Assembly (NCBI RefSeq): GCF_030684315.1
Contig: NC_081370.1
Coordinates: 16,260,106 to 16,324,105 of the forward strand
DNA length: 64,000 bases
Reading direction: 5' to 3'
DNA from: Stegostoma tigrinum
Taxonomy: Eukaryota
Part shown: positions 11,850 to 64,000 of the stretch, in pieces
How the letters are laid out: each line of letters starts with the position of its first letter
Numbering within the stretch: the first letter of the stretch is position 1
Made by a program: the position numbers and the translations under genes
The notes under the pieces: model-generated
The model's input: only the letters and a program-made list of their open reading frames with translations
Databases searched by the model: none
What the model was told of the DNA's origin: nothing

Positions 11850-14800
11850 ATTTGAAAAAATATACTTTATTCATAGAATGTACAAAAAATAAAACATTTA
11901 TACACCTACCCAGTCATGCGAGCTGCTCTGGGTTACCCAGGGGGTACGTACACCAACTAAAAGGAAAAGAAAAGAAACAAAGGAAAAAAACACAAAGCAA
12001 AGAAAATACCCCGGCAGTCGTCTCCCCGCACAGTTCCTGTTGGCCCGCTGACCAGCTGGGGCCAGTTACCAGATAGGGCCCTTGTTTCTATTCTGGATGA
12101 GGGGTTTCATACAGTGGTCTTCCCCCACCGCACCTTGGCAGTGACTGCCCCAAGCTTTAGCGCGTCCCTCAGCATGTAGTCCTGGACCTTGGGGTGCGCC
12201 AGTCTGCAACACTCGGTCGGAGTCAGTTCTTTCAGCTGGCAGACCAGCAAGTTGCGGGCAGACCAAAGAGCGTCTTTCACCGCATTGATGGTCCTCCAGG
12301 CGCGGTTGATGTTGGTCTCAGTGTGCGTCCTGGGAAACTGCCCGTAGAGCACAAAGTCCCGTGTCACGGAGCTGCTCAGGACAAACCTCGGCAAACACCA
12401 CTGCATCCCCCCCAGACCTCCTGCGCATAGGCACACTCCAGAAGGAGGTGATAGACAGACAGACAGTCTCAGCCCCCCCGCAGCCGCCTCGAGGGCAGCG
12501 TGGGGTGGCGCAGAGATTCCAGGCTTGCATAAAGGATCTCACTGGCAGACCCCATCTCACTGCCAGAGAAGCAATGTCCTTGTGCTTGTTTGAAAGTTCT
12601 GGTGATGAGGCATTCTGCCAAACGACTTTGGCAGTCTGCGTGGGGAATCACACGACAGGATCCACCCTCTCCTTTTCCCAAAGGGTCTCGAGGATACTAC
12701 GTGCTGACCACTGCCTTGTGGTCAAAAAGGTGTTTCCTTTCAAAAATTTCTTCACGAAGGACAGGTGGTATGGGACGATCCAACTACTCAGAGCGTTCCG
12801 CAGCAATGAGGCCAAGGCCCATACTTTGCAACATCAGGGACAGGTAGAACCTCAGTAAGTAGTGACACTTGGTGTTTGCGTACTTAGGATCTACGCACAG
12901 CTTGATGCAGCCACACACAAAAGGTAGCCATCAGGGCGAGGGTGGAGTTCGGTACATCCTTTCCCCCCCCCCCCCAGTTTTCCAGGTCTTTGTACATGGT
13001 GTCCCTGCGGACCCGGTCCATCCTCGACCCCTAAATGAAGTGGAAGATGGCCTGGGTGACCGCAGCAGCGCAGGTCCAGGGAATAGGCCAGGCCTGCACC
13101 ACATACAACAGTACCAAAAGCCCCTCGCACCTGACAACCAGGTTCTTATCTGCGATGGAGGGGGGACTGGAGCGTCCACCTGCCCAGCTTCTGCTTCAGT
13201 TTGGTGATACGCTCCTCCCAAGTCTTAGTGCACACCCCAGGTCCACCGAACCAAACACTTAGCACCTTAAGGTAGTCTGTCCTGACAGTGAAGGGGATGA
13301 AGGAGCGGTCGTCCCAGTTCCCAAAGAACATGGCCTCGCTCTTACCCCTATTGACTTTGGCACCCGAGGCCAGTTCAAACTGGCCGCAGATGTTCAACAG
13401 CCTACTCACTGACTGACGATCGGTGCAGAAGACGGCGACATCATCCATGTACAGGGAGGTCTTGACCCGAAGGCCTCCACTGCCTGGGATAGTCACGCCC
13501 TTCAGGCTCACGTCCTTCCTGATGGATGCGGCGAAGGGCTCCATACAGCACACGAGCAAGGCAGGAGAGAGCGGGCAGCCCTGCCTGACTCCAGATCTGG
13601 CGGGAAAACTGTCCGATTCCCACTTGTTGATGGAGACTGCACTAACGATGTTGGTATAGAGCAGCTGGATCCAATTGTGGTTGCCCTCCCCGAACCCCAA
13701 TTTGGAGAGGACGTCCCTCATGTAAGCATGAGAGACCCTGTCGAAGGCCTTCTCCTGGTCCAGGCTGACGAGGCAGGTGTCCACCCGCCTGTCCTGCACG
13801 TAGACGATCGTATCCCTGATGAGCATGAGGCTCTCAGCGATCTTCCTGCCCGACACAGCGCAGGTTTGGTCAGGGTGAATCACCGACTCCAGGACAGACC
13901 TGACCCAGTTGGCTATGACCTTGGCCAGGATTTTGTAGTCCACGTTCAATAGTGAAATGGGACGCCAATTCTTGATTTCTTCCCTCTCCCCCTTCTTGGA
14001 AATGAGGGTAATGATGCCCTTCCTCATGGACTTGCACATTTCACCTGCCCGAAGCGCACTATCATACACCTCCAGCAGGTCCTGGCCGACCAGGCCCCAC
14101 AGAGCGGAATACAGCTCGGCCGGTAAGCCGTCACTCCCGGGAGTCTTATTCCTCTCAAAAGGACTTGAGGGGTCTGGTCAGCTCGGCCAGTCCAGCCACT
14201 CCCTTGTGCCGTTGTCTAAGACCTCCGTGATAGACAACAGGAACAACTCGGAGGCCGTGCTGTCCGTGGGCTTCACGTCGTACAGTCCGGCATAGAAGGA
14301 TCTGCTGATCCTCAAAAGTTGGGCCGAGACGACGTCACCGAGCCATCGTCCTCCTTCAGCCGGCTAAGCACAGGGCTCTCTTTGTGCACCTTCCAAAAGG
14401 AGGAACGCGAGCACGTCTCGTCCTGCTCCACGGAGCGGACCCTGGACCGGAAGATTATCCTGGAGGCCTCCGCGGTGAAGAGCGAGGCTTGCTGGCCCCT
14501 CACCTCGCAGAGGTCCTCCATGACATCGACCCCCATTGACTGCAGAAGGAGCAGGTTCTGCATCCTTTTCTGGATTCGCAACAGCTTTCCCCGCCTCTCT
14601 CTCTCGCCTTCCAAGCACCCTGGAGGACAAAGAACCTCTTGATGTTCTCCTTCACTGTCTCCCACCAGTCGCCTGGAGACTCAAAGAGGGGTTTCACGGT
14701 TCTCCAACCGGCATACTCCCTCTTAAGGTCCTCGATGCTCTCTGGGGTCAACACAGTCGTGTTGAGCTTCGACGTCCCCTTGCCGGCCTGCTGGTCATCC

Positions 14801-15670
14801 TGTAAGTGACAGTCGGCCAGCAGGAGGCAGTGGTCAGAGAAGAACACCGGCTCAATGCTGGTGGACCTGACTGAGAACACCCGTGACACAAACAGGAAGT
14901 CTATCCTTGAGCAGATAAGCCCATCTGGCCGTGACCAGGTGTATCTCCGCTGCGCTCCGTCTGCGGGCGTGCTGAAGACGTCGAGCAGCTTGGCGTCCTT
15001 CACCGTGCCTGTCAGGAATCTGGACGTGACATCCAGCTGACTCCCCCCATCCACTGTCCCCATGCCAGATCTTCCATCTGCATCAATGATAGTGTTGAAG
15101 TCTCCACCTAGGATGACCGGCCTGGACATCACCAGCAGGGGTGGAAGCCGCTGCAGGACGGCCAACCGCTCACTCTGTATCGCTGGGACGTACACGTTGA
15201 TCAGCCTCAGGGGAGCGTTCCTGTAGGTGACATCAGCCACTAGGAGGCACACACCCACCACCTCCTGAACTTGAGAGATGGTGAAGTTGCGTCCCTACAG
15301 CAGAATAGCCAGGCTCGAGGAGGGACAGTCATTACCCCCCCCCGCCCCCGACCAGATCGAAGGCCCACAGGTCCAGGCGCCCGACCATTTCCCTTACCTG
15401 CTCAGGTGTGGTATCCCGCACTCCTGCGGAAACAGGAGGTCTGCCTTGACGGTCAGGTAGGCCAACATGGACACATCTTGCGGTGGACTTGACGCTGCGC
15501 ACATTAACGCTCGCAACTCGTACCCCAATGTGGGCAGTGACCGCAGTAACCTCCCTGAGTCCCAGGTCCAGCCCCTCCTTCGGTCCCTTCATGCCCCTTG
15601 CCCAGGCGAACTGCTGGATGCTCTCAGGGCTCAGGAAACCATCCGTGCTGCCTTCCGGGTGGCATCTCTG
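11850..15670 (-). mobile_element. L1/Tx1-clade non-LTR retrotransposon: near-complete ORF2 (APE endonuclease, RT, Cys knuckle) plus end of ORF1; frameshifted
   Basis: APE motifs VASVNVRS (~15500), LINVYVP, ILGGDFN, SRIDFLF, FSDH (ORF 14500..15261); RT NWRPISLLNVDYK, SLDQEKAFDRV, GVRQGCPLSP, YMDD (ORF 13146..14069); CPRGGCGG knuckle ~12490; minus-strand AATAAA near 11870; GC/CpG-rich. Confidence 0.95.
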
Positions 15671-16932: not shown

Positions 16933-17359
16933 CTGGGTCTGTATACCTGGCTCACTGGCAGTCACATTTTCCAAACCTTAACATAGGACCAAACTGGAAG
17001 TACCAAGCTGAAGCAGTTTGACTACCTCCAGATACAAAGTGTCCAGGTAAGTTTCCTCCGGCCTACTGGATCACAAAACAGATCATCAAACTGTGCCCAA
17101 AGTCTCTGAAGCTGCAGTTTGAGGGCATGCATTGGCAATGCCAGCAGAATACGTCGGTAATTCTCAGCAAGTCGGGCAACATTAATGGAAAGGGTAAGAC
17201 AGTGAAAAGTTTACGTAGATAGCCTGTTTTCTGATCTCTCATTGATTCTGTACACAACACTGTCAGTTCCACACTGGGCCCTGCAATGCCAACTTCACTT
17301 CCACTGCCCTGCACAGTCAACATCACCCTGTGCTCCACATTATTCACTCCAACTAGTGC

Positions 17360-18275
17360 CCCACACTGTCAGCTCCACCCCCCACACTGTCAACACCATC
17401 CACACACAGCCATCTTCACCACCCACTCTGTCAGCTCTACATCCCACAGATCACCTCCACCCCCCCACAATGTCAGCACCACCTCACACTATCAGCTCCA
17501 CCCACACACTCACAGCTCCAACACCACACAGTCGCCTTCACCCCAACCCTGTCAGCACCTCCCCCAGACAGTCACTTCCACCCCCACCCTGTCTGCTCTA
17601 CCCACACATTGTCAGCTCCACCCCACCCTGTCAGCACCAGCCCCCCCACTGTCAGCTCCACCCCCCCACACTGTCAGCACCAACCCCCACACTGTCAGCA
17701 CTACCCCACACTGTCAGCACCAACCCCCACACTGTCAGCACTACCCACACAGTGTCAGTTCACAACCCCCACCCTGTCACTTCCAACGCCACCCTGTCAG
17801 CACCACCCCCACACTGTCAGCTCCACCCACACACTGTCAGCTCCACCCACACACTGTCCGCACTACCCCCCACTCTGTCAGCATCAGCACCACACCATCA
17901 CCTCCACTCCCCACACTGTCAGCAGCACCCCCGACACTGTCAGCATCACACCCCACACTGTCTGCACCACCCCCACACTGTCAGCACCACCCTCCACACT
18001 GTCAGCACCACACACTGTCAGCACCACCCCCACACTGTCAGCACCACCCCCCATGCTGTCAGCACCACCCCCACACCGTCACCTCCATCCCCACACTGTC
18101 TGCACCACCCCCACACTGTCAGTATCACCCCCCACACTGTCACCTCCACCCCCCACTCTGTCAGCAGCATCCCCACTCTGTCAGCAGCACCCCCACTATG
18201 TCAGCACCACCCCCACGTTGTCAGCACCAGCCTCCATACTGTAAGCACCACACCCCCATGCTATCAGCTCCATCC
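17360..18275. repeat. Minisatellite, ~20-21-bp unit (ccacactgtcagcaccaccc), roughly 40 copies
   Basis: cactgtcagc recurs every ~20 bp; all three + frames stay open only because the unit lacks stops. Confidence 0.95.
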
Positions 18276-30375: not shown

Positions 30376-30789
30376 AGCTCATTAGCATATTCTCCTACAT
30401 CCTGCAGCGTATTCTCTAACCATCTCGATTGCATTCTCCTCATTATTCCATAACAGACCTCACTTACCTTGCAGGTCCACTCATCCTCTCCTGTCCAAAC
30501 ATTTGCCCATAGTCTTCTCTATCCATCAACCATGAGCAAACACGGGTTGCCTGGTAGGTCAGAAAGAAGCTCTGAGCATCCCAAGCATTTAATGCCACAG
30601 TTCCATGAGGTGTATTGACCACCCGCCCCTTCTTCAGTTGCCATTCTGTTCTTGTCTTGCTTTCATTGGTTAAATTTCAGGGAGCCCAGCAAACCTATGG
30701 ACCTGAATAAAAATCAGAAATTGCTGAAGAAACTCAGCAGATCTAGCAGCATCTATGGGAAGAAAGCAGAGTTAATGTTTCCTACCCTT

Positions 30790-31950
30790 TAGTAAAGCCT
30801 TTGACAAGGATCCACGGTAGACTATCTAGCAAAGCTAGGTCACATGGGATTCAGGGTGAGCTTACCAATTTGATACAGAATTGGTTTCATGGCAGGAGAC
30901 AGAGAGTAATGGTGGAGGGTTGCTGTTTGGACTGGAGGCCTGTGACTAGTGGTATTCCACAGGGATTGGTTTTGGGGCCATTTTTGTTTGTCATTTATAT
31001 AAATGATTTGGATGTGGGTATAGAAAGCATGGTCAGCAAGTTTGTGGCCAACACCAAAATTGGTGGCACAGTAGACAGTGAAGAAGGTTTTCTAAAATTA
31101 CAAAGGGGCTGTGATCAAATGGGTCAATGGGCTGAAAAATGGCAGATGGAGTCCAATCTGGATAAGTGCAAGGTATTGCATTTTGGTACAACAAATAAGG
31201 GTAAGGCTTATACAATTAATGGTTTGGCCTTGGGTAGAGTTGTAGAACAAAAGCACCTAGGGGTGTAGGTACATAATTCTTTAAAGTTTGTGTCACGTAT
31301 AGACAGGGTGGTTAAAAAAGGCATTTTGCACACTTGCCTTCATTGCTCAGTACTTTGAGTATAGGAGTTGGGATATCATGTTGAGGATGTACAGGACATT
31401 GGTCAAGACTCTTCTGGAAAACTCTATCCTGTTCTGGTCACCCTGCCATAGAAAGGATATTTCTAAGCTGGAGAAGGTTCAGAAGAGATTTACCAGGAGA
31501 TTGCCAGATATGGAAGGTTTGAGTTATAAGGAAAGGCTGGATAAGCTGGAACTTTTTTCATTGGAATGTAGGACGTTGAGAGGTGACCTGGTAGAAGTAT
31601 AAAATAAAGAGAGGTTTAGATAGATTTGATGTTGTTGCCTTTTCTCTAAGATGGGGAAATTCAAGACTAGGGAGCACATTTTTAAGGTGTGAGGAGAGAG
31701 ATTTAAAAAAGACATAAGAGGCAAATATTTTTGCACAGAGGGTGGTTTGCATGTGAAATTAACTTCCTGAGGAAGTGGTGGATGTGGGTACAATTGCAAC
31801 TTTGGATGGCTATATGTCTAGGAAAAGTTTAAGAGGGATATTGGCCAGGGGCAGGAAGGTGGGGCTAGTTTAGTTTGGGACTATGTTCGGCTTGGACTGG
31901 TTTGACTGAAGGGTCTGTTTCCGTGCTGTATAACCCTATGACTACGACTG
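30790..31950 (+). mobile_element. CR1/HER1-type LINE 3' portion, preceded by an old Penelope pLTR arm (30705-30782)
   Basis: WRPVTSGIPQGLVLGPFLFVIYINDLD, WQME.N.DKCKVLHFG, LEKVQKRFTR...RGDLVEV; tail ctgtttccgtgctgtataaccctatgact. Confidence 0.92.
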
Positions 31951-39150: not shown

Positions 39151-39239
39151 AAAACCTAACACATTCATGTTCCAAGATAATAAAATGTGAGGCTGGATGA
39201 ACACAGCAGGCCAAGCAGCATCTCAGGAGCACAAAAGCT

Positions 39240-39267
39240 GACGTTTCGGGCCTAGACCCTTCATCAG
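39240..39267 (-). ncRNA. Minimal type I hammerhead ribozyme motif (mirror copy)
   Basis: Exact reverse complement of 41137-41164. Confidence 0.7.
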
Positions 39268-41136
39268 AGAGGGGGATGGGGGGAGGGAACTGGAATAAAT
39301 AGGGAGAGAGGGGGAGGCGGACCGAAGATGGAGAGTAAAGAAGATAGGTGGAGAGGGTGTAGGTGGGGAGGTAGGGAGGGGATAGGTCAGTCCAGGGAAG
39401 ACGGACAGGTCAAGGAGGTGGGATGAGGTTAGTAGGTAGCTGGGGGTGCGGCTTGGGGTGGGAGGAAGGGATGGGTGAGAGGAAGAACCGGTTAGGGAGG
39501 CAGAGACAGGTTGGACTGGTTTTGGGATGCAGTGGGTGGGGGGGAAGAGCTGGGCTGGTTGTGTGGTGCAGTGGGGGGAGGGGATGAACTGGGCTGGTTG
39601 AGGGATGCAGTGGGGGAAGGGGAGATTTTGAAACTGGTGAAGTCCACATTGATACCATATGGCTGCAGGGTTCCCAGGCGGAATATGAGTTGCTGTTCCT
39701 GCAACCTTCGGGTGGCATCATGGTGGCAGTGCAGGAGGCCCATGATGGACATGTCATCAAGAGAATGGGAGGGGGAGTGGAAATGGTTTGCGACTGGGAG
39801 GTGCAGTTGTTTGTTGCGAACTGAGCGGAGGTGTTCTGCAAAGCGGTCCCCAAGCCTCCGCTTGGTTTCCCCAATGTAGAGAAAGCCGCACCGGGTACAG
39901 TGGATGCAGTATACCACATTGGCAGATGTGCAGGTGAACCTCTGCTTAATGTGGAATGTCATCTTGGGGCCTGGGATGGGGGTGAGGGAGGAGGTGTGGG
40001 GACAAGTGTAGCATTTCCTGCGGTTGCAGGGGAAGGTGCCGGGTGTGGTGGGGTTGGAGGGCAGTGTGGAGCGAACAAGGGAGTCACGGAGAGAGTGGTC
40101 TCTCCGGAAAGCAGACAGGGGTGGGGATGGAAAAATGTCTTGGGTGGTGGGGTCGGATTGTAAATGGCGGAAGTGTCGGAGGATAATGCGTTGTATCCGG
40201 AGGTTGGTAACCGGAGGTTATCCTCCGACACTTCCGCCATTTACAATCCGACCCCACCACCCAAGACATTTTTCCATCCCCACCCCTGTCTGCTTTCCGG
40301 AGAGACCACTCTCTCCGTGACTCCCTTGTTCGCTCCACACTGCCCTCCAACCCCACCACACCCGGCACCTTCCCCTGCAACCGCAGGAAATGCTACACTT
40401 GTCCCCACACCTCCTCCCTCACCCCCATCCCAGGCCCCAAGATGACATTCCACATTAAGCAGAGGTTCACCTGCACATCTGCCAATGTGGTATACTGCAT
40501 CCACTGTACCCGGTGCGGCTTTCTCTACATTGGGGAAACCAAGCGGAGGCTTGGGGACCGCTTTGCAGAACACCTCCGCTCAGTTCGCAACAAACAACTG
40601 CACCTCCCAGTCGCAAACCATTTCCACTCCCCCTCCCATTCTCTTGATGACATGTCCATCATGGGCCTCCTGCACTGCCACCATGATGCCACCCGAAGGT
40701 TGCAGGAACAGCAACTCATATTCCGCCTGGGAACCCTGCAGCCATATGGTATCAATGTGGACTTCACCAGTTTCAAAATCTCCCCTTCCCCCACTGCATC
40801 CCTCAACCAGCCCAGTTCATCCCCTCCCCCCACTGCACCACACAACCAGCCCAGCTCTTCCCCCCCACCCACTGCATCCCAAAACCAGTCCAACCTGTCT
40901 CTGCCTCCCTAACCGGTTCTTCCTCTCACCCATCCCTTCCTCCCACCCCAAGCCGCACCCCCAGCTACCTACTAACCTCATCCCACCTCCTTGACCTGTC
41001 CGTCTTCCCTGGACTGACCTATCCCCTCCCTACCTCCCCACCTACACCCTCTCCACCTATCTTCTTTACTCTCCATCTTCGGTCCGCCTCCCCCTCTCTC
41101 CCTATTTATTCCAGTTCCCTCCCCCCATCCCCCTCT

Positions 41137-41164
41137 CTGATGAAGGGTCTAGGCCCGAAACGTC
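41137..41164 (+). ncRNA. Minimal type I hammerhead ribozyme motif in Penelope pLTR
   Basis: CTGATGA-A-GGGT(CTAG)GCCC-GAAA-CGTC: intact core, stem II, palindromic ACGT stem III, GUC cleavage triplet; stem I only ~2 bp. Confidence 0.7.
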
Positions 41165-41689
41165 AGCTTTTGTGCTCCTGAGATGCTGCTTGGCCTGCTG
41201 TGTTCATCCAGCCTCACATTTTATTATCTTGGAATCTCCAGCATCTGCAGTTCCCATTATCTCTCTCACATTCATGTTCCAGCTATCTTGACCCCATTTC
41301 ACCTCACCACTGCCGCAATGAGCCCATGATGAGCATGATTCAATGTAGATCTGAGTGTGCATGGATTGAATGCTCACCCTGGATCTCCTTGGCAGTCATT
41401 ATATGTTCCTTCAGAGGAAGCCATCTGCCTCTATGCCTGAGACATGGCCAAAACTGATTGTGTGCATGCACTCCCTCATACCTGTATCAAGCTGCATCTA
41501 ATGCCTGGCAGTTCCACTGTGTTTTCCCCACTCCTCTGAGATGCATCTCACAGATATCTTGTGGTTGTGACCTGAGGCCAATCATGAGTGGGGTGCTCTG
41601 CACGGGTCTGATCCCCAACAATCCTCTGAACCTCTGGGGTCCTGGCTGATGGCTGCTGAGACGTATTTGTGGTATGCTCACCAGATTGT

Positions 41690-51054: not shown

Positions 51055-52732
51055 ATGCAATAGAAAGGATAGAAAAGGAGGCAAGAAAGAGGGGGTGGGG
51101 AGTTGGTGTTTTTGATCTTGATTAAGGAATACATTACTGCTGTAAATAAGGAAGATATTTCTGAAAAATCGTCCAGTGGATATATGTGGTTAGGAATTAC
51201 AAATAAAAAAGGAAAGATCACTTTAATGGGATTGTACTATAGGCCCCCCCCAATAGTATGAGGGAAACTGAGAAACAAATCTGTAGGGAGAGCTCAGATA
51301 TATGAATGCATAATAGGGATGTAATAATGGGGGATTTTAATTTTTCAAGCATTGACTGGGGCTTCCACAGTGTTAAAAGTTTGGATGGTGAAGAATTTGT
51401 CAAATGTGTTCAAGAAAATTTTCTTTATCCTACTAGAGAAGGAGCAAAACCAGACCTTCTTTTGGGCAATAAGGCAGGACAAGTGACTGAAGTAAGCATG
51501 GGGGACACGTTGGGTCAAGCGATTATAACCTAATAGTTTCAGAATGGTTATGGGAAAGGTTAAGCCTTCCATAAAAATTAAAATATTTATTTGGAGTAAA
51601 GCAAATTTTAGTGGTATGAGACAAGAACTTTCAAAAGTTGATTGGAATAGACTGTTCACCGATAGAAGGACATCTGACAAGTGGGAGGCTTTCAAGAGTG
51701 TGATGATGGGAGTTCGGAGGCGTTATGTTCCTTTAGAGAGAAGGGTAAGGCTGGTAAGACCAGCAATGCTCCATAGGGATCAGTTGTGGGTCTTCTTTTG
51801 TTTGTCATTTATATAAATGATTTGGATGTGAATACAGGAGGCAATTTTGTGGAAGACACCAAAATTGGTGGCACAGCAGACAGTGAAGAAAGTTTTCTAA
51901 GTGACAAAGCGATCTTGATGAAATGGGTCAACGGGTTGAAAAATGGCAAATGGAGTTCAATCTGGGTAAGTGTGACATACTGCACTTTGGTACAACAAAC
52001 AAGGATAGGGCTTAAACAGTTATTGGTATGGCCTTGGGTAGTGTTGTAGAAGCGAGGGACCTAGGGGTGCAGGTGCATAATTCATTGAAGTTTGTGTCAC
52101 ATATAGACAGGATGGTGAAAAAGGTATTTGGCACACTTGCCTTCATTGCTCAGTCCTTTGAGTATAGGAGTTGGGAAGTCATATTGAGGTTGTACAGGAC
52201 ATTGGTCAAGTCTCTTCTGGAATACTGTATCCAGTTCTGGTTGCCCCAATTCTAGGCAGGATATTATCAAGCCAGAGAATGTTCAGAAGAGATTTATTAG
52301 GATGTTGTCAGATATTCAAGGTTTGATTTATAAAGAAAGGCTTGGACTTTTATTGCTGGAGTGTAGAAGGTTAGGAGGCAACCTGATAGATGTTTATAAA
52401 ATAATGACGGGCATAGATAGTTAACCATAGTTGTCTTTTCCTTAGGATGGAAGATTTCAAGACTAGGGGCCACATTTTTAAAGTGAAATGAGAGAGATTT
52501 AAAAAGACATGAGGCAGATTTTTTACACAAAGGGTAGTTCACATGTGGAATTTCCTGATGAAGTGGTGGATGTAGGTACAATTACAATGGTTAAAAGACA
52601 TTTGGATAGATACACGAGATGGAAAGATTTGGAGGAATATAGGCCAGAGCAGGGGAGTGGGGCTAGTTTAGTTTGGGGTAATGTTCGGCTTGGACTGATT
52701 GGACCGAAGGGCCTGTTTCCATGCTGTATGTG
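51055..52732 (+). mobile_element. CR1/HER1-type LINE (APE part joined to RT 3' part by internal deletion)
   Basis: GL.YYRPP, VIMGDFNF..IDW, PTREGA..DLLLGN (endonuclease); LLFVIYINDLD, RDLGVQVHNSLK, LYRTLVKSLLEYCIQFW; tail ggaccgaagggcctgtttccatgctgtatg. Confidence 0.92.
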
Positions 52733-53423: not shown

Positions 53424-54184
53424 CTGTGTGTTTGGGGGGGTGGGTAGGGGCATGGGGGGAATACATGTAAGGCACACTGATAATTTCTTCTGGTGTCCAT
53501 ACATTTGAGTGATTACTGCATTACCAGTAGGCAAGGAGGAGCAGAGGTTCTGTGTTCCACTGAGCATAGTACGTTGTAAAATGGGCATGAGATTCAAACT
53601 GGCCTGTTCTGACTGGGCAGGTTGAGTTAAAATAACCCACAGTGGGCTTGGTTTATCTCCAAGTTATTTTTAAACACAAAATTAATATCACCCAATTTCC
53701 TGTTAGATACTGGATGTCTCAATCTCTTCTGCCAAGGATGGATTGGAGTTCAGAAACTAGAATCAAGCAGACCGTTAATTTAAACCTACAGCATCATTCA
53801 ACCTCATTGTCAAGAGGAGTTTAAAGTGAGGTTGAACAACATTAGCAGCAATGCATTAGAAAATGTTGGCAGCACTCATTCTTCCCAAAAGGATCCTGGA
53901 TCTTTCAACAGCTAGGTGACCTTTTGAATAATAAAATTTATAATTAAACACATTTTAAAATTATAGATAGATTTTAAAACTAATATGAACTGTTGGCAAT
54001 AAGTAACACCTTTCCCAGCCCATCAAGGCTTATACATTCATGGTTTGAAGATCTGTCTCATACCACCAGTCTAAGCACTCTTTATTTGTATTTGAACAGA
54101 ACAGTGAATGCATCGGTGCACAGCCCACATTAAAAAAAACAAAATAAACTAAACAGTGCAAGCAGAGGATAAGTTAATACAAAA

Positions 54185-54190
54185 TTTATT
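54185..54190 (-). promoter_or_regulatory. KCNC1: Candidate KCNC1 polyadenylation signal
   Basis: Minus-strand AATAAA ~850 nt after the Kv3.1b stop, followed ~30 nt later by a GU/U-rich tract (tgtttagtttattttgtttttttt); a second AATAAA at 54081-54086. Confidence 0.5.
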
Positions 54191-55041: not shown

Positions 55042-55106
55042 TTAAGTTACTCTGACTGCCCCTGCTTGCATATATTTAGCAATGACAGGGCTGCCTTTGC
55101 AGAAAT
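55042..55106 (-). CDS. KCNC1: KCNC1 terminal coding exon, Kv3.1b-type tail
   Basis: Acceptor ctttgcatgcag|; phase 1; (D)[20 protein letters not shown] versus mammalian [21 protein letters not shown]. Confidence 0.95.
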
Positions 55107-55227
55107 CTGCATGCAAAGAATACAGTGAATACTTGAGCTTCCTTCCCCTGCCCTCCAACATATATGTGGCATTTTGTTTCTGTTAAATAAAATGATAGCT
55201 ACATGCAGAGGCGGCAGTGTCTTTCTT

Positions 55228-55361
55228 CTAAAGACCTTTGCATGCACCCGGACTAATTGGTACCTCTACAAAGTATTGCTTGCAACCGGTTTGGCTTCCA
55301 TGCAATGGCTCAAACTGCATGTTTGCCTGAACTCCTTCAGGGTCCAATGGCTCAAAAGATC
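55228..55361 (-). CDS. KCNC1: Possible further alternative terminal exon of KCNC1
   Basis: Acceptor gatttctttctcag|; phase 1 open for 43 codons (G)SFEPLDPEGVQANMQFEPLHGSQTGCKQYFVEVPISPGACKGL*; no convincing homology recognised. Confidence 0.3.
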
Positions 55362-55749
55362 CTGAGAAAGAAATCTTCAAACGTTGACCAGGTGCAGCAG
55401 CAGACATAAAGTTTACCCATTCCCAAAAAGCCAGTAAATTCATAATTGGAAAGCTAAGCACCCATAGCATTTGGGCTGCACCAACAATTATTGGGAACTG
55501 CATGTGGCTGCATAACCTTCAACTATGCACCAAACACATGCAGCAAATGGACCACCGGTGCCTCTGTGTCCCTGCATAATGTCATTTAGAAACTACCATG
55601 GTTCGTTCCACCTAACGTCAACAGTAGAACCACCAGAAGCAAGGTGCTACCCAGAGACATGCGATCTTCAGACTTATTACCTGGTTTTATGCAAGACAGT
55701 ATAGGCTGTAGGACTAAAGCTTTGGACCATTCTCAGTTACTAATCCATG

Positions 55750-55889
55750 CTATAAAATGGATGGTATGGGAGACGGAGAATGCCTCAATGGACAAGGAGA
55801 GCTGTAGAGCGAAGAAGACACTGAAGACAATTTTAGTATATTTCTGCTCATGCCAGCTCTGTTGTTTAGGCTCCTTGAGTTTTCAAAAC
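55750..55889 (-). CDS. KCNC1: KCNC1 alternative terminal exon, KCNC2/KCNC3-type SRSLNN...PSIL tail
   Basis: Acceptor ttgcatttttccttacataaag|; phase 1 matches exon 3; (G)[45 protein letters not shown] versus recalled human KCNC2 [45 protein letters not shown]. Confidence 0.85.
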
Positions 55890-58708
55890 CTTTATGTAAG
55901 GAAAAATGCAAAGTACAGCATTGGATCAACAATAGAATGGATAATGATGAGTCTACATCATTGCCAGTCTGGTAAAGCATCTCCATGCATTTGCATGCTC
56001 AGAGTAGTATCACCGTTAATGAAAGACAAAGAGCAGTTACTAGGGCTCGCTCCTACCTCCAAGGTTCATAATTTTTATTTCACCAGACAGTATTTCTTAA
56101 GAAAGCACTCGGGTGATGCAATAGCTTTGAATGTTACATTGGACATGTTGTTCATAGTGCTTGCCCTTGCAGTATTCTGATTGTAGTTCAGTTTCAGGGA
56201 ACTATTAAACTTTGTTTAGTCAAAATATAATTCATTCACTGATTTAAGAGGCTAGGACTGTCAGTTTTAGGTAAATTATTACAACAGCACAGCTAACAGG
56301 TTAAAAAATTGAACAACATATATTCCTTTGTATCATCCCTGAGATGGCAACAATTCACTCAAACTTCATCCAAGTGCAGCAAACGGACAACAAAAATGTA
56401 ACTGGACTGCAAGTGGAAATAGCTGCCAAGTCCAATTCAGCTAAGCTTCTGGCCTCCACAGATAGACAATTTCCATGTTCCCACATTTCCTTTGCCACTA
56501 TTGATTACTTATATTAAACTGATGGTGCTCAACATTTGGCAATATTTCAAATGGAGTCGGGAAAATGTTTCCAAATCAAAGTTACGTCATGGCTGGTGAT
56601 GTGAGAACAGTTGGCAGCCCTTACTCTAAAGTGGAGTCGACTTGCCAAGACAAATGGAAACATGGGCTTTTGAGACTTAAACTGTAGTACACAAATGTCT
56701 GAGGTGCATCAAACAGGGCAATTTTGAACTGGTAAATATTGACTTAAAAATAATTTTTGATTAGAGAACAAAAATACAGAAAGCAAATAAACAGTTGCTA
56801 TGTTGTGTTGTAGATCTTTTCTGAGGTAGGAATTATAAAATGAGAAAGTCAGTTATTTTCAGATACCTAGTTATAGTTACCATTGGAGACAAGTGAGAAG
56901 TGAAATTAATCTAAACTGTTACCATAGCCATGGCAGAGCCTAAATGGAGATATTACTGGAAAATTTTTGAAAGATTCATATACACAGTTTAAACTTCTCA
57001 TGTGGATTTTGAACATAGCAAGATGGAAGATTTTGGTCCTGAAGAAACAACTTTTTCCATTCAGCAATGACCATATCAAGCACTCCTAGGTTGGGCATTA
57101 TATGTCTAATGGCTAATTTAGAGGAGGAGTGGAACTCTTTCTAACCTGCTTCAGCAATATCCCACTGCCCTTAGCTTAGAGAGGGCTGTCTGTAATGCAC
57201 TTTCATGCATTTGCCCACACCCTCCAGCATGTCAATTTGCCAAATTAGGTTTAAAAGTTTCAGTGCAGAAGGATCAATCTCATCCAGAAGTGCTCAAGAC
57301 TGTCCAGACTTACTGCTCAAAAAAAAAGAGGATTTTGCATCTTATCAGTATAACAGTGAAATGAACCCAGTTTGCAAAGGTAAAAGATGAGCACCTAATC
57401 ACCAATGTACACCACTACTCTCTTTCCATTTGGCAGCTTTCGATTTTCAAACTAGGAAAGTGCTACATTTTTACATATATCAGGGATGTGGTTAAAATTG
57501 CTTCATTCCCAACAGAAAATGAATGCATCAAAAATATAAGGTAATTCAATAATTTTGAGTTAGTGACCTAGTCAGCAAGGTGTTAACTCTATTTCTACAT
57601 ATTCAACTCCCTAAGACACGAACAATGAAATAAATGTCATAAATAATGAAAATATGTAAACACTAAAATAACTTGAACAAAAAAATGGAAAGCTCAGTGT
57701 ACTGGTAAAATAAGCTGCGCCAAAGGTATTTTACTTGGATTTATTTGCTAAGTGAATAACTAAAAAATGGGTCAGCCAATTGGCTTTATCACATTTCAAT
57801 CCATAGAAATCCTTCCATAGGTCATCAGTGTCAACTCAGTGATGAAAACCAGAGTGATACAAGTTTGGGTGTTATGAGGTTAAGTCCCATGATATCTCGC
57901 TCTTTTTAATGCCTGGAGTGAGCTGAAGGAATAACTGGGAACTCTTTAGTCTTTCATATATGTAGGAATTGGCTTCTTTTACATGCCAATTTGATACTAT
58001 TCTGAAGTCCATTGAAGCGTTTGAAGACTAGGCATGCAACCAATTCCATTTCAAACATGCACAAAAAACTTAACATTGAACTGATCTACAAAACACGTAC
58101 AGGATGAATATAAGCTGAAAGGGTTCCATCGTTCATGCTGGTAGAAACACACTTCCACGGGCCAACAATATGCTGACATTGAAACACACTAGTGAATTAC
58201 TCTTTAGCCAATCTGTCCAATACGGAATCAAATTCAACACTTTGCTACAAAGATAATTTTAGCTGAGGTTTTTGAGCTACTTTCTTATGAAAGTGTTGTG
58301 ATCATTTTTTTTAGTCTGGCTTTTGATTTACTTTATAAATTATATTTACATATTAAATGTTCTCTATAGAAGACTGTCCATCAGAAATGACACATGAAGC
58401 TCCTATATACCACACCAATGGTATGGTTTGGATAATACTGTCTCTCTATGTATAGGTCTATATATATACACATATATATACAATACACCAGTGAGAGGAC
58501 TTGAATGAAGTTCTACACTTTAATTCATGGCGCTTAGCGTCTTTCTAAAATCTCTATGGAATTTCATAGACAATTACTCTACACAGCTAAGCATTGCTTA
58601 TTAATCCACGATATACCTTTTAAATGCAGCTGCATATCCTAGCAATTAGATTAACAGATTGATATGTATACCTATAAGGTTACTGTATCTTGCCTGTGTG
58701 TTACGTAC

Positions 58709-63552: not shown

Positions 63553-64000
63553 TCAGATGGACATTCCTCTAAGAGGTTTCCTACCTGCTCTGTTTATTTC
63601 TAAAATCTCTTCCTGAGCGAGTGGGCATGTGTCACTCTGTGTACTGTGATGTGGAGAGTTTACACCAGATTTACAATAATTGGGGGATCCCAGCTGGGGC
63701 GGTCTCGGTATATGCTTCTTTTTCTTCTTTGGTAATTTTTGTTTGGCCATCGCTAAGGAGTAATACATTCCAAAATTATTGACAATGACAGGGACTGGCA
63801 TAGCAATGGTCAGCACGCCCGAAAGAGCACAGAGGGCTCCTACCAACATGCCCGACCATGTCTGAGGAAACATGTCTCCATAGCCAAGTGTAGTCATGGT
63901 TACCACGGCCCACCAGAATCCAATCGGAATATTTTTGAAGTGTGTGTGTCGATCAGCTCTCAGGTCGTGGGGACTAGCACCTATCCTCTCAGCATAGTAG
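63553..64000 (-). CDS. KCNC1: KCNC1 (Kv3.1) exon 2, partial: turret, pore, S6, proximal C-terminus; Kv3.1a read-through tail to stop at 63553; internal donor for spliced isoforms after 63585
   Basis: YYAERIG...[59 protein letters not shown]...[14 protein letters not shown]...[10 protein letters not shown]|RKPLRGMSI*; GCAG|GTAGG donor; the tail is Kv3.1a-specific. Confidence 0.98.

Follow-up and report, generated by a model that had tools for sequence, protein, structure and literature searches.

The question raised by this locus is whether the Kv3.1 channel of a shark has more ways to end than the two usually considered. The C-terminal tails of Kv3 channels are thought to set the location of the channel and not its gating, and the Kv3.1 gene is taken to have two isoforms. 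Papers on mammals describe just two Kv3.1 isoforms (PMC12994180), zebrafish kcnc1a is reported with a pair of distal exons separated by about 1 kb (PMC2933717), and three variants are known for Kv3.4 (PMC6088260). An earlier note on this DNA had proposed a third terminal exon, retained by the shark in KCNC1, and that proposal is followed up here.

The window, i.e., the whole stretch of 64,000 nucleotides of the Stegostoma tigrinum contig NC_081370.1 that was analysed, contains, on its minus strand, the 3' half of a gene for a Kv3 potassium channel, and the rest of the gene lies outside it. The 3' part of exon 2 (63585..64000, minus strand), encoding S5-pore-S6 and the proximal C-terminus, is identical to the matching part of the protein predicted for the same genome (P0002), and read-through of its donor gives the Kv3.1a end (63553..63584, minus strand), which matches the end of human Kv3.1a (PDB 7phh) in every letter. 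Exon 3 (58906-58709, minus strand, 198 nt) carries the ankyrin-R motif EDCPHI and is identical at 64/65 positions to Scyliorhinus and at 49/64 to plover KCNC1. The Kv3.1b-type terminal exon (55042..55106, minus strand) encodes 21 residues with the junction codon, identical at 16/21 positions to the tail of the tarsier protein P0081 and at 12/21 to that of the eel protein P0147; the former, which bears the name 'member 3', resembles a KCNC3/KCNC1 chimera, and nothing but its b-type tail was used. The pore/S6 coding region also gives a match to the Rfam family K_chan_RES, the potassium channel RNA editing signal (63775-63888, minus strand, 92.5 bits, above the gathering score), which is probably generic channel similarity.

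By far the best call for this gene, on sequence comparison, is KCNC1 (Kv3.1) and not KCNC2 or KCNC3, in agreement with the earlier note. The protein core, with the terminal exon removed, is closest to plover KCNC1 (432/504 identical), compared with 388-393/499 for shark KCNC3-type proteins and 378-384 of about 499 for shark KCNC2, and a 148-residue alignment to human Kv3.1a (PDB 7phh) has an E value of 2e-94 with identical last residues. In a 31-protein tree the window protein is placed outside the KCNC2 and KCNC3 clades, each supported at 100/100 and each including shark members; its join with amniote KCNC1 has a branch support below 80% and is drawn open in this set of 31 rows, which is without KCNC4, KCNC1L and an outgroup. 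That open join is one of the points in favour of a different assignment, in which the gene would be another Kv3 paralogue (KCNC3, or the 'KCNC1L' of birds and squamates) and the tail a known Kv3.3-type variant. Others are the name 'member 1-like' given by NCBI to the shark relatives, a label often misapplied in the Kv3 family (PMC10241522), the KCNC3-like N-terminal extension of the shark models, and synteny, as no host gene neighbouring KCNC1 was identified among 150/162 candidate frames of window positions 1-54000, where small exons could escape and where the same scan gave only retroelement domains and two weak sub-threshold matches. This assignment is nevertheless very improbable in view of the core identities, of the separate shark members within the KCNC2 and KCNC3 clades, of the presence in the window of both the Kv3.1a read-through end and the Kv3.1b-type exon, and of the tailed turtle and bird proteins described below, which are named KCNC1 and match human Kv3.1 over the aligned stretch.

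Several proteins named 'KCNC1' or 'KCNC1-like' of Xenopus, other frogs, lizards, skates, and rays (P0013, P0015-P0018, P0012, P0035, P0039, P0115) group in the KCNC3 clade. The shark and ray KCNC1 models P0003-P0005 have at residues 1-28, which are encoded outside the window, an extension similar to that at the N-terminus of shark KCNC3, with the Cys at position 6 replaced by His; the own-genome model P0002 begins at the second Met. Such an N-terminal extension mediates fast inactivation in Kv3.3 (PMC2933717) and, by analogy, the Kv3.1 of cartilaginous fishes may keep an inactivation ball.

As for the alternative tail, the acceptor, the Gly phase of the junction, the 45-codon frame, and the 643-nt spacing given by the earlier note were recomputed from the sequence and all the coordinates proved correct. 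The minus-strand acceptor (...tttgcatttttccttacataaag/GT) is located at 55890/55889; it is an AAG and not a YAG, its polypyrimidine tract contains 15/20 pyrimidines (tract and acceptor together, 55890..55914, minus strand), and its position agrees with the junction in the shark and ray models P0003-P0005 and in P0002. The coding part of the exon measures 140 nt, from 55889 down to the stop at 55750 (minus strand). Exon 3 has the donor AAG G/gtacgt and is in phase 1 at both ends, so that the junction codon with the 55889 acceptor is G/GT, coding for Gly, and exon 3 can be skipped in frame; the exon 2 donor at 63585/63584 (minus strand) is in phase 1 as well, and exon 2 can thus splice directly to the 55889 exon. 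After the split codon the frame runs for 45 residues, ending with SPIPSIL and a stop, and the tail including the junction Gly has 46 residues, among them 13 Ser/Thr and 5 Pro with three Ser-Pro sites. The shark KCNC1 tail is one residue longer than the 45-residue tails of KCNC2, shark KCNC3, and bird KCNC1. As in the PSIL-type tails of Kv3 channels, the acceptor is in phase 1 and is joined after the proximal C-terminal exon. The Kv3.1b-type acceptor (55107/55106, minus strand) comes 643 nt past the alternative-tail stop, and the two terminal acceptors, 55889 and 55106, are 783 nt apart. An AG followed by an open frame is by itself weak evidence for an exon: on the minus strand, 10/226 AG sites in the 3.6 kb that separate the exon 3 donor from the b acceptor open at least 45 codons in the needed phase. 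Among these 10, the 55889 acceptor has the most pyrimidine-rich upstream tract.

Decisive evidence that the exon is more than chance comes from sequence homology. Five long tails, from catshark KCNC2, vole KCNC2, skate KCNC3-type, plover KCNC1, and carp kcnc3b, were used as tblastn queries and all (5/5) match 55890-55753 best in the window, with E values from 3e-16 to 4e-11; the next-best matches of these tails in the window have an E value of 0.078 or worse. The frame in related sharks, which the earlier note had put forward as a test, is intact, and two sharks and one ray keep 43-45 of the 46 residues (Carcharodon 45/46, Scyliorhinus 45/46, Hypanus 43/46), while the KCNC1 tails of turtle and plover are identical to each other at 44-45/45 positions. 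Most KCNC2 and KCNC3 tails share 25-32/46 residues with the window tail. The description of the exon as specifically KCNC2-like does not hold, since the identity to KCNC2 (31-32/46) is to be set against 29-31/46 for shark KCNC3 and 29-30/46 for turtle and bird KCNC1. Nowhere is the tail more invariant than over its last seven residues. The SPIPS[IV]L end occurs in 117/130 named or own proteins, a set enriched by its retrieval with the tail in the query, and by type in 9/22 KCNC1, 86/86 KCNC2, and 21/21 KCNC3 proteins and in one unclassified protein of this tail-enriched set; an R-x-x-S site is found at the same position in the four of four tails checked for sequence. No Pfam family and no PDB chain matches the tail, and the ESM Atlas gave no usable match for exon 3 plus tail; the tail is probably disordered.

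The tail type is carried at the same junction by KCNC1, KCNC2, and KCNC3 of cartilaginous fishes and, because all three paralogues have it there, the comparison of sequences indicates that the exon is older than the KCNC1/2/3 duplications and represents an ancestral Kv3 tail, as the earlier note had supposed. The long tail of KCNC2 (Kv3.2) is found from chimaera to mammals in NCBI and UniRef models, at the same junction after ...GGIRK and with 31-32/46 residues identical to the shark KCNC1 tail. It is nearly invariant (44/45 identical from shark to vole), whereas the KCNC1 copy has diverged and in sharks and rays has one residue more. In the tail-only tree the KCNC1 tail diverged more than that of KCNC2, with stems of 0.36 and 0.30 changes per site, and the shark KCNC1 tails are not joined with those of turtles and birds. 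In this tree KCNC2 lies closest to the ancestral tail, and the KCNC1 copies diverged on both stems, with conservation within each group afterwards. As for the second, short-tail acceptor, which the earlier note had supposed to be shared with KCNC2, short-tail KCNC2 proteins were absent among the 86 KCNC2-type matches (0/86), a set retrieved with the long tail in the query.

The tail is also present in existing annotation, at variance with its supposed unannotated status. A search with the 45-residue peptide found four proteins among 28 candidates: the predicted protein of the same genome (P0002) and the NCBI 'member 1-like' models of Carcharodon (X6), Scyliorhinus (X1, in a cluster of 80), and Hypanus (X8). 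The shark and ray models are 93-98% identical to the window peptide and have the same gene, junction, and end. X-numbered NCBI models are usually based on RNA-seq introns. The Scyliorhinus model (P0004) splices exon 3 to the 55889-type exon, in line with the earlier note; in the models of the own genome (P0002), Carcharodon (P0003), and Hypanus (P0005) exon 2 is joined directly and exon 3 is skipped, which gives a predicted Kv3.1 lacking the ankyrin-R motif and bearing the S-I-L end.

Retention of the tail is not confined to sharks, as the earlier note had framed it. Exon 3 plus tail, used as a query, gave 246 matches among 350 candidates, of which the best 120 of 246 were listed; among these matches listed, the closest after shark are KCNC1 proteins of turtles (Natator X5, Trachemys X3) and birds (Charadrius X4 and X1, Columba), and Charadrius X4 leads a cluster of 662. 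The models of Natator, Trachemys, Charadrius, and Columba share with the shark the gene, the junction, and the end of a homologous tail, although the tails are just 29-30/46 identical. The tail was seen in 0/3 mammalian and 0/5 teleost KCNC1-type proteins among the matches listed. Since a mammalian KCNC1 with exon 3 alone was listed, a tailed mammalian KCNC1 would be listed if it were a cluster leader; finch and human Kv3.1b are 96.5% identical (PMC10241522), and mammalian tailed versions could therefore sit inside the 662-member bird cluster. A loss of the tail in mammals and teleosts is thus weakly suggested. A search of representatives at 50% identity gave 17 matches, 16 of them unnamed, and another search gave 27 matches with 19 further unnamed proteins.

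The tail is therefore predicted in public gene models of sharks, rays, turtles, and birds, and for KCNC1 it is apparently uncharacterised, being known in both shark/ray and turtle/bird KCNC1 from computed models alone. In the literature searched, which mostly did not cover the older Kv3 cloning papers in subscription journals, no description of a KCNC1 tail of this type was found, nor any functional study of tailed KCNC1 of sharks and rays, turtles or birds, and 'Kv3.1c' occurred solely as run-together 'Kv3.1channel(s)'. Five predicted finch Kv3.1 transcripts with C-termini of differing length are mentioned in one paper without further description (PMC10241522). Splice geometry, homology, conservation at the protein level, and presence in database models are the parts of the reading that can be stated with high confidence.

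A separate third terminal exon, as it was conceived in the earlier note, should have its own poly(A) signal before the next acceptor. A scan for AATAAA and ATTAAA between the alternative stop and the b acceptor (55750-55106) found neither hexamer, and the GT[AG]AG consensus donor is also absent from this interval; for these reasons the 'third exon' is probably the upstream acceptor of a single shared last exon with a common 3' end. The 643-nt spacer (55107..55749, minus strand) would then be 3' UTR in the new isoform and intron in the Kv3.1b isoform, and the first two AATAAA hexamers downstream of both stops (54190 and 54086, within 54081..54190, minus strand) are candidate shared poly(A) signals. 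When other KCNC1 ends of teleosts and birds (P0155, P0157, P0141, P0162, P0040) were compared with the window by local tblastn, no additional terminal exon came to light (best E 0.14).

The best explanation of the whole, which is considered quite probable, is a real and selected alternative 3' splice site of KCNC1 that gives access to an ancestral tail, whose most likely role is PDZ-type targeting. In this mechanism exon 3 (or exon 2) would be spliced to 55889 and not to 55106, and a 46-residue Ser/Pro-rich tail with an S-I-L end would replace the 21-residue tail; the Kv3.1b coding stretch would then become part of the 3' UTR, still within one last exon, and for this reason nonsense-mediated decay is not expected. 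The exon goes back to the Kv3 gene preceding the duplications and is kept in KCNC1 of sharks, rays, turtles, and birds. Class I PDZ ligands have a Ser or Thr at position -2 and a hydrophobic last residue, and the P-S-I-L-stop end fits this pattern, consistent with the PDZ-type end that the earlier note had considered possible. The S-I-L end would bind a class I PDZ scaffold and favour placement in soma and dendrites, as has been reported of fish Kv3.3, altering the location of the channel and leaving its gating unchanged. The motif of Apteronotus Kv3.3 is presumably the same PSIL-type tail. In Apteronotus, dendritic localisation of Kv3.3 is reported to depend on a PDZ motif at its C-terminus (cited in PMC13282929), and EDCPHI is needed for the binding of Kv3.1b to ankyrin-R (PMC8257253). 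The isoform with exon 3 would keep the ankyrin-R motif and the isoform that skips exon 3 would lose it, keeping the PDZ-type end; by analogy, the isoform most likely alters scaffolding and location. For expression in this animal, the shared poly(A) site, PDZ binding, and targeting, the chances are put somewhat short of even. Points against the explanation are the AAG form of the acceptor, the greater divergence of the KCNC1 tail in comparison with that of KCNC2, the failure of the shark and the turtle/bird KCNC1 tails to join in the tail-only tree, and the two isoforms to which papers on mammals confine Kv3.1.

Other roles have been weighed against targeting. The tail could be mainly a phosphorylation or gating module acting through its Ser-Pro sites, a reading for which the 13 Ser/Thr and three Ser-Pro sites in 46 residues and the fixed place of R-x-x-S in the tails checked can be adduced. 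It is judged unlikely, as the zebrafish kcnc3a variants PSIL and WIKP gated alike in oocytes (PMC2933717) and conservation is strongest over the last seven residues; a phosphorylation or gating role and a PDZ role are in any case compatible and not exclusive. Still less probable is a minor or vestigial exon, an ancestral relic kept by slow evolution in sharks or by constraint on the 3' UTR or on splicing, seldom translated and with no distinct role. The faster divergence of the KCNC1 tail with respect to that of KCNC2, the lack of the tail in the mammalian and teleost KCNC1-type matches listed, and the isoform being known here from predicted protein models alone would agree with such a relic, but within turtle/plover (44-45/45) and within sharks and rays (43-45/46) the tail shows conservation equal to that of the channel core (97-98% among these fishes), and the frame and the position of the stop are kept in both groups. 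A bolder form of the targeting explanation, offered tentatively and thought to be rather doubtful, is that a third, PDZ-ligand isoform of Kv3.1 is ancestral and is still made by sharks, rays, turtles, and birds, its loss or silencing having occurred independently in mammals and in teleosts.

The nearest known system is zebrafish kcnc3a, whose 'PSIL' variant was amplified and cloned and has a gating like that of the other variant (PMC2933717). As in the shark, a homologous distal exon is joined after the proximal C-terminal exon, ends in P-S-I-L (in an alignment with rat Kcnc3 variants), and alternates with a second distal exon (PMC2933717). However, kcnc3a is another paralogue, its variant was cloned and recorded whereas that of shark KCNC1 is predicted only, and its distal exons are about 17 kb apart in comparison to the 783 nt between the shark acceptors (PMC2933717). 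With respect to mammalian Kv3.1a and Kv3.1b, both ends are present in the window and the PSIL-type tail is a further option.

The exon does not represent a new mechanism, and public annotation already contains the tail sequence. That birds, turtles, and cartilaginous fishes have a conserved third tail bears on songbird and auditory work on Kv3.1, and it offers a simple picture of how Kv3 tails were divided among paralogues after duplication. If the bolder reading of an ancestral third isoform is true, the optional exon 3 and the choice of tail would form a combinatorial code, in which the ankyrin-R motif is either included or not and the end is of the PDZ or of the b type, and fast-spiking neurons of birds would use a differently targeted Kv3.1 that is missed by antibodies to the b tail. 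If the exon survives in mammals, it would be an overlooked coding exon of an epilepsy gene.

Other elements were found elsewhere in the window. Remains of LINE-type retroelements, in which reverse transcriptase and endonuclease domains are recognised, are located at 12100-15300 (minus strand), 30747-31265 (plus strand), and 51306-51530 (plus strand), and a 20-nt unit repeated about 44 times in tandem (17359-18255) is the source of three long low-complexity open frames. At 39170-41234 there is a perfect inverted repeat of 1017 nt with a 31-nt spacer and a GIY-YIG-like frame in each arm, which would be either a very recent pair of Penelope-like retroelements or a fold-back artefact of the assembly.
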